Shown: positions 1,871 through 60,262 of the stretch, in pieces
Layout of the letters: each line of letters starts with the position of its first letter
Position numbering within the stretch: the stretch's first letter is position 1
Program-made: the position numbers and the translations under genes
Notes under the pieces: generated by a model
Databases searched by the model: none
What the model saw: the letters and a program-made list of their open reading frames with translations, nothing else
Told to the model about the DNA's origin: nothing
Assembly: GCA_964016885.1 (NCBI GenBank)
Contig: OZ024740.1
Location: forward strand, 122,450,001 to 122,514,000
Origin: Eledone cirrhosa
Lineage: Eukaryota
Length of the DNA stretch: 64,000 nucleotides
Direction of reading: 5' to 3'

Positions 1871-2065
1871 AATAATAATAATAATATGTGGTGTATATAT
1901 AGATAGAAAATATCTAGAGCGAATGATTGGCAAAATTGTTAGAGTATCAGATGGTATGCTTTTCGGCGTCTTCTCCGGTTTTGTGCATTCTCAGTTCAAA
2001 TTCTGCCACCTATCACCAGATTAATAGTGGTGGGATAGAACTTGGTTACTATTATTAAAACACTC

Positions 2066-2203
2066 CAGCATAGTTACGTCCCTTTACGATCTGAGTTCAA
2101 ATCCCGCCGAGGTTGACTTTGCCTTTCATCCTTACGGGGTCGATAAAATAAAGTACCAGTAATGCACTGGGTAATTGCTGGCCTTGTGCCTAAAGTAGAA
2201 ACA
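2066..2203 (+). mobile_element. 5'-truncated Meta-type SINE with 15-bp TSD
   Basis: Same family; ATTATTAAAACACTC at 2051-2065 and 2204-2218. Confidence 0.85.
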
Positions 2204-3363
2204 ATTATTAAAACACTCGAGAAAACTTCAGCATCAAAGGGGATATACTAAGTCATCAAAGTGCAAATGTGAACAACAACATATTTGAAAACATATGAAG
2301 TATTGCGGCCTGGAATGGCCATTATCATATATCTAAAGAATCTAAGCTAAAAACCATAATTATCATCTAACTTTCTGTTGCTAAAGTATTATAATTATAG
2401 AAATATAATTTCTGCAGAATTGACAGCAAGTTTAAGATGTTTGCTTAAGAACCATGTGATTTCCAGTACATGAGTAGCGTATTGGACAAATCTATTCCCT
2501 TGTAGCTTCTCATTGACCAATACATTGTAATTGGAATTCGGTAAAAGAAATTATACAGAAATATGTGGTGTGTATGTACATAAATGTTTGAGTGAGTGGA
2601 TATGTGTTTGCGTGTGCTTATGCATGTGTATGGATAATTATATGTGACGCAACATCCGCAACATCACTACTTAAACCATGACCCGTGTTGATTCAAATGC
2701 TAACCAGGCAACTGGTAAAACATTGAAGGATACGATAATTACCAAACAGAAATAAGTACTGAAGTTTCTGCAATTGTTTACAACACATTGAAGGTGATAT
2801 CTCAGTGGAATTGCACTCAAGGAATGAAAGTAATAAAAGATTTAATGATTGAAAATATAATAGCGTATTTCATTCAATAACTAAATTATAGTTGAATTAA
2901 TCAACATTAGCGAATACAATGACAATATTCGGAAAATATTCAGTAAAGAGCTTCCCATAATATGGTAGCATTTAGCAATCCTATTTGACAGGTTATCTGT
3001 TATTAGAGAGCAAAAGTTGTCCTTCGATTTGCAAAATGGTAACTGCCAAATAGTCTTCAAATTGCACCGAGACGTTTCATAAAAGTAATAGCAATATCAG
3101 AATATGCTCACCAACATAAGACCGAAATCATTGAAGACCATATCTGGAAAGAATTTGATTATAGTTATGCTCCCCCTGAGACAAAATAACATAAACAGCA
3201 ACTTTTTAGTTTTCTTACAACATAAACATTTTCATAAATTTCAGTACTGTTTATTGAAAAACTAATTTCATACCTTGGCGATAAATGCATTCTATTACCA
3301 ATCAGGCTAATATATTTAGTATTTGCCAGCGAGTAAATGTATTATATTATAATACTATAATAT

Positions 3364-3504
3364 TGAGTTCAAATCCCGCCCAGGTTAACTTAGCCTTTCA
3401 TCCTTACGGGGTCGATAAAATAAAGCACCAGTAACGTACTGGGGTCGATTTAATCGACTGTCCCCTCCCTCAAAATTGCTGGCCTTGTGCCTATATAAGA
3501 AACC
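3364..3504 (+). mobile_element. 5'-truncated Meta-type SINE (longer subfamily) with 18-bp TSD
   Basis: B box and Meta core; ATTATAATACTATAATAT at 3346-3363 and 3505-3522. Confidence 0.85.
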
Positions 3505-3887
3505 ATTATAATACTATAATATCATAGTACTATATAAATGATAGAAATCATTGAGAGAAATTTACGATGGTTGGGACACTTTACAGGTTTGACAACAGCT
3601 GACTCCCGAGAAAACGCATTAACTCCCATTTATGCACGAGAAAATAATACCAAGCGAAGAGATTTAAAGATGCTGCAAAAAGGAATATGAAGTGGAAAGG
3701 AATTCAGCATAACATCAGGCAAAAACTGACCAGTATAGAGCAAGCTTATCCAATCATGCCAAAGCAATATACAGTCCGAGTAAAGTATGTTTTGTATATA
3801 ATCTGTGCTACATAAACAGGTAAATATGCATTTCTAGATGTGTGTTTGTTTAGGATAAGATATCTTTATTTCAGATTTTGAAGATTA

Positions 3888-4036
3888 CTATCCTGTTTCC
3901 ATATTATGAGACAAGCCTTCCCTAAAAAAATAAGGTACTAGGGCTTATTTTCGGGGTAGGGCATTTATTGGATAGCAACATAGAAATCAGGCTAGAGCTT
4001 ATTTTTGGAGTAGGTCTTATAATAGAAGAAACATGG
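3888..4036. mobile_element. Decayed Tc1/mariner (pogo/Tigger-like) MITE
   Basis: Repeated TAGGGCTTATTTTCGGGGTAGG / TAGAGCTTATTTTTGGAGTAGG subterminal motifs and imperfect inverted ends. Confidence 0.4.
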
Positions 4037-4039
4037 CCC

Positions 4040-56800: not shown

Positions 56801-57571
56801 TTGTTCCTCAATGTCAGTGTTGAACAAACGGATGAAGATTTGTTATCAGCACGGCACAGCTTTAATCGGGCTGTTTGTTTACAACGAATCCAATATCATT
56901 ACCCATATGTATATGTATATATGTGTGTGTGTGTGTATATATATATATGTGTGTGCGTATATATATATATGTGTGTGTGTATATATGTGTGTGTACGTAT
57001 GCCTACTTATAAATTTGTTAAAAGGTTTTTTCTTAAAATATTATAATTCTTAAGAGAATATTTTAAATTAGTACGCACCTGAATGTACGGAAGTAAGCCA
57101 CCATTGTAAATAGATCATTCTTTTGACATGTGTAATCAAGAATTCCCAGGAATAACACACACCTGAAGAGCAATACTTGAAACAATAAAGAAATGACATT
57201 AACCATTTCGTTACCAACCCGACCAAAATCGGCTCTGGTTCTATGAAATAAAATCACCTATTTTCAGACCTGTTAACTCTCCCCGGTTTGGCTCATTTCT
57301 CCCCATCTCCCTATTGTTGGCTATAGCTTTCAATATGTAAAATCTCCCCATTTTGCCACATTTTTCCCCATTTTGGGGTACCCTTAATCATGGTACTCCT
57401 CATCTGGGTTTTTAAAAGTTGTCATGTCTGCATTTTAAAGCTTCCCAATATAAATTAAAATCTTCCCACATAAATGTATATAAGAACCCTACCTGATGTT
57501 ACTGTCTTAATAATGAAATAATTAAAAATGTTGGTAAATACCTCAAAATCTTTCATTAATTAAAATAGTGT

Positions 57572-57702
57572 GTACGGCCCTAGCGATTCTGAGTTCAAAT
57601 CCCGCCGAGGTTAACTTTGCCTTTCTTCCTTACGGGGTCGAGAAAATAAAGTACCAGTAATACACTGGAATAATTGCTGGCCTTGTGCCAAATGTAGAAA
57701 CA
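57572..57702 (+). mobile_element. Meta-type SINE with 17-bp TSD
   Basis: ATTAATTAAAATAGTGT at 57555-57571 and 57703-57719. Confidence 0.85.
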
Positions 57703-59599
57703 ATTAATTAAAATAGTGTTTATTTATTTAGAAAGGTGTTCATTGCTGTAAATCTATGATTTATGACATTACATGTGTAACCATAACAAATTTAGAAATG
57801 TTAAACACTGTCGTTATAGCACCCAGGGATGCAGAATACTTTTGATTTTACCTGTAAACGTATAAATAAATAACATTTATGGGCTTCCAACTCAGTGTAC
57901 ATCGTATATAATATTGGCCATAAGCAAAGCAATATTCTTATTCATTCGTTTCTGCTGTCTTTAGAGCTCACTTTTGCAAGGAAGCAGATGTTGTAACTGT
58001 AGAACATTTTCCATGGTAATATTGGTGGAAACATGAATAATAAAGATCAATTTTAAGTTAATGGAGAAAATATAGACATATAACTGAAACAGAAATGCAA
58101 TTACAAATTAAGAGAAAAAACAGGAATATGAGAACTTAAACATTTAGAATTTGAGAATTGGGTGTTTAAGAAGATATCAATATAAAAACAAAGTATGCAG
58201 ATTAACAGTTACGATTTATAGAACAAATAAGAGAAATATTATGGGGAAGATACAGAAGACTCAAGTAGGGAAAGACAAAGACTGAAAGAGGAAGAGGTAA
58301 CTAAGGGAGTGAAAGTAAGCAATTTCAATTGTATGAGCTAGAGGGTGTCACAAAGAAAGGTTAAAATAATACAGAGGACTGTATATTGTAATTTTGAGAA
58401 GGGTTTTTTTCTGTGGCATTTTCGATGCTTTTATCCTTCCAGTATTGATAAAATAATTATGAATTAAGTATTGTTTAATATAACCGACTTCTCCTTCCTA
58501 CTGAGCCAATGTAAAAAAATATTACACATGCAAACTTATTTTAAAATGACACAAATGATACAGACTAATATTTGTCTATACAATATTAGAAAAGGAAGTT
58601 GTTACAACTGAGATGTGTCAATTGACACAATTCTTCAGTTATTTGTATTCACTTTTAAACAACCATGCCTGTATATCAATCACATACATCTATAAAATTT
58701 ACCTTGAAATAATGTAATGGACGTTTTCATTTTCTGCTCAGCAATATTTTTCAGTGATAAATCTGTGAATTACTTTTGTGTAATTCACCACCAAAATCAC
58801 ATTCCAGGACCCACCCTCTTGTTGAATGTATTGTACAGACGAGATGCTAGATTGCAATACATTTTGGCAGAAATGTTTTGTCTTTATTTGAAGAAAAGTC
58901 ATTGATATTTCTGGATCAAATTTATTATAAAGTTGCAAATGGTTGAACGGACGGTTCTGCAATGAAATAGTTTTAATGAAATGTGAATGTCTTTGTATAA
59001 ACTGGAATCACATGCTAGACATGAGTCTTATTTTCATGGAGAAAAACATCAATATAAGGCCAATTATAGTGATAGTTTTGCTATCAGAAAACTTCCCCTG
59101 ACCAAATCGTTGTATATATAACCCCATAAATCTGTGAACTTTTTTATTTTTTCTGTATTGAGCCTTTCTATTAACTGTTCAGCTTGATGTCAATGTCACC
59201 ATCCCTTGCAGATGGTCACCATCCCTGCAGATTGGACACAGCAATAAAACATAGACTTTCAGTTTAAATGTAATATAGAAAGGACAGGATATATATAACC
59301 TTCATATTACTTTTGCATTGCATGATGTATATATTTTGGATGTATGTTATGTGATTTAGCCTAATAGTTATGGCATTAGATATACTTGCTACCAGTTTAA
59401 TATGCAGAAGAACTTGGTTAATTAGTTATATAAGGTTTCTTCTGGATGTATCTCTTGCGATTATGTCTTTCCTTGGATATATAATTTACCTATTGAACTT
59501 TAATCGAGACCTTACTGCACTTATTAAAAGTATGATCATTTTACATTTTTATATAAATACAAACAATTAAAAAACTGAGCACAGACATTCATTGGTCTG

Positions 59600-59925
59600 T
59601 TTGATCATAGTCTGATGAATGACCTAAATCTCATTGCTCAAAGGCCTACTGGATCAAACCTCAATCCAGTAATACACACCATTTATCATAAGGCTAAACA
59701 TAATTAATTGTAGGCCTGCTGAACCAAAGAGTGATCAGGAGTAATATATAGTTGATCATAAATCTGCTGGATCAAAGAGTGAGCTGGAGATAAACATCGT
59801 TGATCATAGGTCAGCTTCATCAAAGACTGATTTGGAGAGAAACATCATAGGGTCGTTGGACCAAATCCTGATCTGGAGACAAACTTAATTGGTCATAGGT
59901 TTGGTGAATCTAAAGGCGATTTGAG
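59600..59925. repeat. Degenerate ~47-bp minisatellite
   Basis: Recurrent GTTGATCATAGG.CTGCTGGATCAAAGAGTGATCTGGAG.TAAAC units. Confidence 0.65.
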
Positions 59926-60235
59926 GATATGATTATCCTCAACTGTTTATTTACATGTGTGTCTGATAAAATACATAACAGACAAGTATTTATTTGTGTC
60001 ATGAATGAATGACTATCAACAGTACAGTGTAAGGCATGACTGCTCATTTAAGTGCAACAAACATAATATTGATAGATCAGGGTTCATTGACTGTTTTCGA
60101 GGAAGAAAAAGATGCAAAAGTGACAATATTTGTTTTATACTCTTTATATTTTCTATAATTTTAAAGATACATAAAGACCACATTAATCTATTTGATATGT
60201 ATTTAATAATAATAATAATAATAATAATAATAATT

Positions 60236-60262
60236 GTTTCTACTTTTGGCACAAGGCCAGCA
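60236..60262 (-). mobile_element. 27-nt Meta-SINE tail stub inside (AAT)n
   Basis: (AAT)n-TGTTTCTACTTTTGGCACAAGGCCAGCA-(TAA)n. Confidence 0.75.

Follow-up and report, generated by a model that had tools for sequence, protein, structure and literature searches.

Which long interspersed element (LINE) moves a short interspersed element (SINE) that is found again and again at the same short target? This question is raised by a stretch of 64,000 nucleotides from Eledone cirrhosa (GenBank assembly GCA_964016885.1, contig OZ024740.1, positions 122,450,001 to 122,514,000 of the forward strand; the whole stretch is called the window). The window is repeat-rich animal DNA, and it contains copies of a SINE with a UCON3 body as well as LINEs of the Tx1 group, one of which, Tx1a, is full-length. 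A first-pass annotation of the sequence had proposed that this Tx1 family mobilises the SINE and imposes its ATTA target preference. The target preference was verified, and sequences from outside the window showed that the SINE tail derives from a Tx1 lineage. As far as sequence data allow a judgement, the protein encoded by open reading frame 2 (ORF2) of an (ATT)n-inserting Tx1 lineage probably mobilises the SINE. The naming of the specific family did not hold to the same extent, because the upstream part of the tail is closer to relatives of Tx1a than to Tx1a; for Tx1a itself as the driver, the chances appear to be about balanced.

Target sites of the UCON3 SINE

Six copies of the SINE are flanked by exact target-site duplications (TSDs), at the positions and with the lengths of 14-18 bp that had been annotated: 15 bp (2051), 18 bp (3346), 16 bp (6506), 18 bp (14092, minus strand), 14 bp (18382, minus strand) and 17 bp (57555). 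The length alone is not diagnostic, as RTE-driven SINEs of hagfish have TSDs of about 17 bp (PMC7245038). All six begin with ATTA. In a test of the upstream copies the first 5 nt of the 3' flank were ignored, and the TSD was located only by the remaining 9-13 nt (the core at 18382 was read by eye). The upstream copy begins with ATTAT in five cases and with ATTAA in one case, showing that ATTA is part of the target and not, as the annotation had considered possible, merely the end of the SINE. The motif ATTAA or ATTAT occurs at 0.53% of the window positions and at 0.85% in the local flanks, and its presence in six of six cases has a p value of about 1e-13. These results support the ATTA preference as a real feature of the target.

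Decayed TSDs of 20 bp flank two older copies that the annotation did not list, 34813-35027 (17/20 identical, by eye) and 47612-47740 (16/20, by eye). In both cases the upstream copy of the TSD again starts with ATTAT. When all 13 copies with a readable 3' end are considered, 11 of the 3' junctions start with ATTA; the exceptions are one junction inside the trimer at 18382-18976, which reads ATTG, and the decayed 34813 copy. After removal of the SINE and one TSD, the empty site at 6506 is colinear, without gaps, with the homologous Tx1a untranslated region (UTR). The base preceding the TSD is a pyrimidine in six of the six exact cases (p=0.025) and in seven of eight if the decayed TSDs are included (p=0.057). 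L1-like nicks are made at a pyrimidine-purine step, which the preceding pyrimidine fits weakly. Extra ATT units outside the TSD were left in none of the six exact cases, and a clear T-stretch of the RTE type about 10 nt upstream of the TSD was not seen at the few sites available (T in 6/8 at -9 and in 5/8 at -8).

The window contains 11 perfect (ATT/AAT)n tracts of at least four units, and nine of them adjoin a UCON3 SINE, a Tx1 or a Dong-type element. All five intact Tx1 ends, which belong to three Tx1 copies only, adjoin (ATT)n with the same polarity as the SINE, and the Dong/R4-type copies were confirmed to have the opposite polarity. Three further SINE copies had been described as lying in (ATT)n. 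This is correct for the copies at 1690 and 60236, which have it on both sides, but the 5434 copy has (ATT)5 on its 3' side only. At 44282-45553, two 5'-truncated Dong/R4-type copies lie in tandem with (AAT)9 between them, and they share a microsatellite with Tx1a on the opposite strand.

In total, 17 pieces of the SINE were detected by BLAST and alignment (Table 1). Four old fragments (32291, 32694, 51476 and 58426) were kept out of the junction counts because no intact end or TSD is readable, and the 47612 copy was excluded from the matrices described below because of its internal deletion. The element has the traits of a SINE, i.e., it is short and non-coding, has TSDs, is truncated at the 5' end and has a fixed 3' end, which carries neither poly(A) nor a T4 terminator. 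A long form with a C-rich insert (3364, 34813 and fragment 51476) can be distinguished from the commoner and younger short form, which is devoid of the C-rich tract. Young copies differ at 1 of 138 nt. In the trimer at 18382-18976, the monomers differ by 5, 14 and 18 nt, suggesting repeated insertion at one site, and the second junction has a different linker.

The body of the SINE is the UCON3 domain, with 39 of 49 columns identical, by eye, to each of two members in Figure S2 of PMC7245038. The B-box context of the head resembles hagfish SINE2-2_EBu, and A- and B-box-like motifs are present, yet neither ARAGORN nor Rfam detected a tRNA in the head, and Rfam found no family in the trimer. The best explanation is a putative tRNA-type (RNA polymerase III) element, judged by the box-like motifs, with a UCON3 body. 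The label "Meta-type" of the first-pass annotation had to be abandoned: the 15-nt Meta motif (supplement of PMC4824008) has two matches with 3 mismatches in the window, with 1.08 expected, and neither of them lies in the SINE; in addition, bivalve Meta bodies are dissimilar by eye. A body derived from CORE or from RTE/Vingi was also rejected, because an 11-nt motif of the body does not occur in the Kojima 2018 supplement and the CORE match in the window belongs to a second SINE family. The UCON3 SINE had no match in plasmids and phages.

The 3' end of the SINE and of Tx1-group LINEs

ORF2 of Tx1a contains APE, reverse transcriptase (RT) and C-terminal zf-RVT domains. In ORF1 a CCHC knuckle (CX2CX4HX4C) was found by reading, while Pfam gave no knuckle match; an ORF1 with a CCHC zinc knuckle is a feature of the Tx1 clade. 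Tx1a ORF2 scored 329 bits against Xenopus TX1 (29% identity) and 180 bits against human L1, and Xenopus TX1 itself scored 263 bits against L1. The closest named relative is a protein of Argonauta hians (69%). Its structure and target preference fit the Tx1 clade, of which it is a putative member, and it is referred to as Tx1-group; in RT trees, which included no named L1 outgroup and did not resolve the backbone, it falls into a well-supported lineage of its own. Both ORFs are open. Residue 589 of ORF2 (41935-38516), in the RT motif QxKAFD, is Pro, where Ser is nearly invariant in an alignment of 18 sequences, and given Pro589 this copy may be inactive despite its open frames. Hairpins in the 5' UTR lie at matching positions in Tx1c (6830-6857) and Tx1a (44085-44112), shortly before the start of ORF1. 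In the region 5434-9073 the elements form a head-to-tail cluster, SINE-(ATT)5-Tx1b-(ATT)4-Tx1c, and the Tx1b UTR harbours one more SINE; this insertion hotspot resembles the arrays of the relatives described below.

The annotation had aligned the SINE end at 3483-3504 with the Tx1a end at 38275-38254. The identity of 16/22 was confirmed, but it is the best case, as the 13 readable copies have 13-16 of 22 and the commonest tail has 15. A matrix was trained on SINE tails only and scored over the window positions. With a length of 22 nt the Tx1a end ranked first among 122,494 positions, and its rank was 1 with 26 nt, 5 with 30 nt, 7 with 40 nt and 312 with 15 nt; the Tx1b end ranked 138. Shuffles that kept the composition or AATAAA resulted in p<1e-4 for Tx1a and 0.001-0.008 for Tx1b. 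The Tx1a end also topped 170 AATAAA-matched sites and 886 sites followed by ATTA. Its score was 16.3, compared with at most 6.2 for ten other element ends (Dong, RTE, Penelope and CORE-SINE) and a third Penelope-like end, so the possibility that another LINE matches the SINE tail better was not borne out by any element end within the window. The distance from the end of the loop to the junction is 16 nt in both SINE forms, in Tx1a and in Tx1b. As a positive control, the RTE remnants were found to share a tail of more than 100 nt with the CORE-type SINE (scores 104 and 81; p<0.005); they do not share it with the UCON3 SINE.

Further members of the lineage were found in genome_contigs. Nine pattern matches were obtained with a single sequence, none of which was confirmed, and a scan with the 18-sequence ORF2 alignment yielded 47 loci. 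One record, CAXXMW, contributed 41 of these, on contigs with head-to-tail arrays of relatives that have 40-44% identity. The record (L001-L038, L040, L045) is filed as a bacterial genome, and these contigs are likely eukaryotic contamination; the arrays have about 6.4-6.8 kb per unit and 17-bp duplications. The relatives comprise two families, L001 being 66-71% identical to the rest at the DNA level and the rest 93-98% identical to one another. L001 and L002-L045 form a clade with Tx1a (support 100/99; 40-41% ORF2 identity). Their ends consist of a C-rich tract, an A- or T-rich linker, the hairpin GGC-CU(U/C/A)GU-GCC, a second hairpin and AAUAAA; compensatory changes were also seen in the second hairpin. 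A 5'-truncated unit of 5,371 bp lies between the two copies of a 17-bp duplication, which shows that the LINE itself terminates in the hairpin-bearing segment. A microsatellite tail is absent from the relatives, and their 17-bp duplications are located at a fixed site.

When the 3364 SINE was compared with the 47 loci by BLAST, only these ends were matched (28/35, E=0.044), and the SINE body was present in none of the fetched loci. When the whole 3364 copy was aligned locally to eight representatives of about 4.5 kb, the best alignment lay within the final 63 nt in six of them, with a shuffle p of at most 0.01 in five. In the reverse direction, a matrix made from the relatives' ends only placed eight SINE tails on ranks 1-8 of 127,972 window positions; with the C-rich tract included, the two long-form copies ranked 1 and 2.

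The hairpin was predicted in seven of eight outside ends, and in the consensus fold the 3-bp stem is invariant, while the third base of the loop varies (GGC-CUNGU-GCC). The SINE has the GGC/GCC stem of the relatives and not the stem of Tx1a (AACC-CUUGU-GGUU), in which the loop is kept and the stem is compensated; two of the SINE-Tx1 mismatches noted earlier are therefore compensatory. Among 14 ends, two-sided changes are found in four of five pairs, 84% of the cells pair, and the covariation score was reached in 0/500 shuffles, which is not a probability, as the 14 rows are not independent of each other and the structure was selected with the sequences in view. Between the hairpin and the end, the SINE agrees with Tx1a and Tx1b in having 13 nt and no second hairpin. 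The upstream part of the SINE tail resembles the outside families, the downstream part Tx1a and Tx1b.

The hairpin motif is absent from seven more distant loci that were checked, at least two of which (L042 and the U2-inserted L046) include the 3' end, and it was not found in the hagfish and mollusc SINE supplements (mollusc: all files but one). Rfam detected no family in L001, L014 and L020, and U1, U2 and 5S in L046. In the latter, at 3856-4029, a Tx1 element with poly(A) lies in a U2 small nuclear RNA (snRNA) gene beside U1 and 5S genes; it is Keno-like by the labels of PMC4494074. An HDV-like ribozyme in the 3' region of the relatives was dropped as a candidate, since no conserved pairing partner was seen by eye.

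Alternative explanations and the proposed mechanism

Besides the dependence among the 14 rows, several points weigh against mobilisation by the Tx1 lineage. Only a short segment is in common, with 22 nt for Tx1a and about 35 nt for the relatives, as is underlined by the RTE/CORE-SINE tail of more than 100 nt. The best match of the SINE in Tx1a is not the end, but a 17-nt stretch of ORF2 of comparable score (29, 0/200 shuffles), and matches of this size can therefore be spurious. This stretch (38843-38860) matches the SINE just upstream of and within the hairpin, is not conserved in Tx1b and probably arose by chance. The Tx1a end reached only rank 123 on the relatives' matrix, and it has a different stem and no C-rich tract. 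Aligned to the relatives as whole copies, neither the 34813 copy nor the short form reached significance, except for one alignment with p=0.045. The relatives represent only two independent families, carry a second hairpin and are not inserted in (ATT)n (0/51 ends). In the full-length SINE RNA the hairpin has a predicted probability of at most 0.23, because upstream sequence competes; RNAalifold gave no consensus structure for 11 window ends, and Tx1b folds with a shifted stem. Finally, the sample is one 64-kb window, and the LINE families of the host are represented as found therein.

Which family donated the tail is answered in part by Tx1a itself: it keeps the loop and the 16-nt distance, but it has a compensated stem and no C-rich tract, so the donor was probably an ancestor or a sister family of Tx1a. 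A sister Tx1 with the GGC/GCC stem and the C-rich tract could be both donor and driver, and Tx1a would then be unable to mobilise the SINE. This sub-case of mobilisation by the Tx1 lineage is a serious candidate, albeit somewhat less probable than not. It would agree with the identical stems of SINE and relatives, with the preference of the relatives' matrix for SINE tails over the Tx1a end, and with the 13 recently active L1-Tx1 families of O. vulgaris (PMC13282606 Table 1). However, the part downstream of the hairpin is that of Tx1a and Tx1b, and the youngest and common short form of the SINE has no C-rich tract, which is thus dispensable.

The origin of the ATTA bias could also be different from a choice by the endonuclease. 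After loosely specific nicking, an AUUA(U) tail of the RNA might pair with the primer, a rather unlikely sole cause that is compatible with mobilisation by the Tx1 lineage. It is known from RTE-type elements that the first base of the TSD follows the 3' microsatellite (PMC6007223), and in the absence of a T4 terminator SINE transcripts would run into the ATT flanks. Nevertheless, no extra ATT units remained outside the TSD in the six exact cases, relatives without a microsatellite tail make 17-bp duplications at a fixed site, and the pyrimidine before the TSD, which cannot be selected by pairing, argues weakly in the same direction. The endonuclease and RNA-primer pairing might also act together in producing the bias.

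It is improbable that the tail is a Tx1-derived relic and that the SINE is now moved by an RTE, CR1 or L2 element with an (ATT)n tail. In octopus, RTE and CR1 occur in large numbers and both show activity, RTE-driven SINEs can have TSDs of similar length, and SINEs swap tails (PMC4824008, PMC5786205), but no newer LINE-derived tail was added, and SINE and Tx1 have a common polarity and junction. RTE was also rejected as a partner within the window, because it ends in (ATG)n and its tail is shared with a different SINE. A chance similarity of A-rich ends, suggested by the short match and the equally scoring match inside ORF2, is very improbable, because the top ranks fell on termini in both matrix tests, which run in opposite directions and were trained on separate sets, and the AATAAA- and ATTA-matched controls do not account for the match. 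Dong/R4 LINEs, which show high activity in octopus, insert in the same microsatellite and lie in (TAA)n beside the SINE (1658-1690), but they were rejected as a partner within the window by their opposite polarity and by ends that rank 15,400 or worse on the tail matrix, and their candidacy is close to negligible.

Mobilisation by the Tx1 lineage can be formulated as follows. The UCON3 SINE would have captured a Tx1-group 3' signal that consists of a C-rich tract, an A-rich linker, the CUNGU-loop hairpin and 13 nt to the end; in the simplest history, the source was an ancestor or sister of Tx1a in octopods that had already lost the second hairpin. The ORF2 protein of an octopod Tx1 lineage (Tx1a or a sister) would bind the signal in trans and nick the bottom strand, presumably at 5'-ATAAT/R-3'. 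Reverse transcription would be primed 16 nt behind the loop, and the top strand would be nicked 14-18 bp away. The expected outcome would be TSDs starting with ATTA(T), insertion in (ATT)n with one polarity, many 5'-truncated copies and re-insertion at sites already used. Such target-primed reverse transcription by the ORF2 protein of the lineage would explain the tail, the polarity, the junction, the length of the TSDs (a relative has 17 bp) and the trimer that sandwiches TSDs. The timing also speaks for it, as young SINE copies are nearly identical and both Tx1a ORFs are open.

Neighbouring elements, known systems and significance

The coordinates of the features are summarized in Table 1. 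The labels Dong/R4, RTE and Penelope are putative and based on motifs; RTE is also matched by RVT_1. The second SINE family, with a CORE-like body (37862-38202, 27011-27341 and 35653-35978), has the tail of more than 100 nt and the (ATG)n end in common with the RTE remnants, and the CORE-SINE/RTE-type tails contain tandem repeats of 139 bp (46747-47160) and 47 bp (31437-31984). A near-perfect palindrome (97%) of about 1.5 kb with AT repeats lies at 51995-53525, and a related inverted-repeat element at 11069-12735. Three decayed Penelope-like elements were found by eye at 9400-10900, 14700-16100 and 55200-56900 (RT and GIY-YIG-like motifs). A weak Pfam match to Neurobeachin at 47894-48172 (E=0.0075) is possibly a host exon.

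Table 1. Positions of SINE and LINE features in the window
Feature	Position	Strand	Remarks
Tx1a, full-length Tx1-group LINE	38254..44281	-	ORF1 698 aa, ORF2 1139 aa, 262-nt 3' UTR; (ATT)11 upstream, (ATT)16 downstream
Tx1a terminal signal	38254..38278	-	hairpin AACC-CUUGU-GGUU, AAUAAA, end
Tx1b, 5'-truncated, frameshifted Tx1	5606..6672	+	76% identity with Tx1a; (ATT)n on either side; in-register end CTTGTG..AATAAAG
Tx1c	6688..9073	+	5' UTR, decayed ORF1, ORF2 start; directly after the (ATT)4 ending Tx1b; 3' end lost
Near-full UCON3 SINE	1691..1870	-	(ATT)n on both sides; inside (TAA)n tail of an oppositely oriented Dong/R4-type LINE
5'-truncated SINE 2066-2203	2051..2218	+	exact 15-bp TSD (2051-2065, 2204-2218)
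Long-form SINE 3364-3504	3346..3522	+	18-bp TSD; tail 3460-3504 with C-rich tract, A linker and hairpin (3481-3491), matching Tx1-lineage ends
SINE copy with variant tail	5434..5590	+	followed by (ATT)5; no TSD readable
SINE 6522-6612	6506..6628	+	in Tx1b 3' UTR; 16-bp TSD
41-nt SINE 3' fragment (14110-14150)	14092..14174	-	18-bp TSD; 6 extra nt at 5' junction
SINE trimer	18382..18976	-	three copies of 14-bp TSD: TSD-SINE-TSD-SINE-linker-SINE-TSD
SINE head (approximate limits)	18877..18965	-	A-box- and B-box-like motifs
UCON3 central domain (approximate limits)	18826..18876	-	39/49 columns identical to SINE2-1_CrH and to SINE2-5_PM (by eye)
Old long-form SINE 34813-35027	34793..35065	-	decayed 20-bp TSD, ATTAT upstream
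Old internally deleted SINE 47612-47740	47591..47760	+	decayed 20-bp TSD, ATTAT start
SINE 57573-57702	57555..57719	+	17-bp TSD, ATTAA start
28-nt SINE 3' fragment (60235-60262)	60204..60285	-	inside (ATT)n
RTE-type remnants	21900-23930, 46050-47262		(ATG)n end

Several known systems are similar in part. The UCON3 SINE2 families (Kojima 2020, PMC7245038) have a tRNA-type head, which is putative in the present SINE, directly before a UCON3 body of about 50 nt, and a similar B-box context; however, they are listed for Chordata, Nematoda, Cnidaria and Xenacoelomorpha and not for Mollusca, and the tails of the hagfish members come from RTE or CR1 or are unassigned, with no case from Tx1. MetaSINEs (Nishihara 2016, PMC4824008) share the putative tRNA-type head and a central conserved body and have a cephalopod member, SepiaSINE2, but the body described here does not match the Meta domain (66 bp behind the head). 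The octopus SINEs OK, OR1 and OR2 (Ohshima and Okada 1994) are cited as CORE-SINEs. Crocodilian SINEU and Tx1-Mar (Kojima 2015, PMC4494074) are linked by target preference and also have tandem copies sandwiching a TSD, which were read as sequential insertion in SINEU-3. In contrast to the present SINE, with its putative tRNA-type head and shared tail and without poly(A), SINEU has snRNA heads and poly(A), and no LINE with a common 3' end was found for it. Kibi, Koshi and the crocodilian (TTCC)n/(TTTC)n Tx1 families have the same ORF2 organization (APE, RT, zinc finger) and fixed-polarity microsatellite insertion; here, the target is (ATT)n, and the RT belongs to a separate well-supported lineage with 29% identity to Xenopus Tx1. 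Stringent pairs, i.e., eel UnaSINE/UnaL2, bivalve SINE/CR1 and L2, and maize ZmSINE2/LINE1-1_ZM, likewise have a shared 3' end with compensatory changes and a stem-loop, which is a predicted one in the present case, but here the partner is of the Tx1 group and the shared part is much shorter.

Tail sharing between SINEs and LINEs is textbook knowledge, yet hardly any cases come from the L1/Tx1 group: L1 tails occur in 3 of the 58 SINE-LINE pairs of Ohshima 2013, and none of the five mentions of Tx1 therein concerns a pair. In the searched literature, with most subscription papers and Repbase Reports outside its scope, neither a tail-sharing SINE-Tx1 pair nor an octopus UCON3 SINE was found. 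Relative to the 2020 list (PMC7245038), UCON3 SINEs are extended to molluscs. A wider proposal may equally well prove right or wrong: a deep Tx1 lineage would recognise its RNA stringently via the CUNGU hairpin, kept across 60% ORF2 divergence, as a ruler that fixes priming 16 nt away; an octopod UCON3 SINE would have hijacked this signal, forming the first tail-sharing SINE-Tx1 pair; and a sequence-specific retrotransposon whose target is relaxed to 4-5 bp would have driven one of the large SINE expansions of octopuses. Whether the L1/Tx1 ancestor had stringent RNA recognition is an open question in Ohshima 2013, and with a signal of 25-35 nt that has compensatory variants in nature, an ORF2 that is nearly intact and a simple target, it becomes directly testable. 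SINEs account for about 11.6% of the O. vulgaris genome, most of them being unclassified (PMC13282606). If the proposal is true, stringent recognition exists in an animal member of the L1/Tx1 group, and a partner would be named for an abundant octopod SINE.

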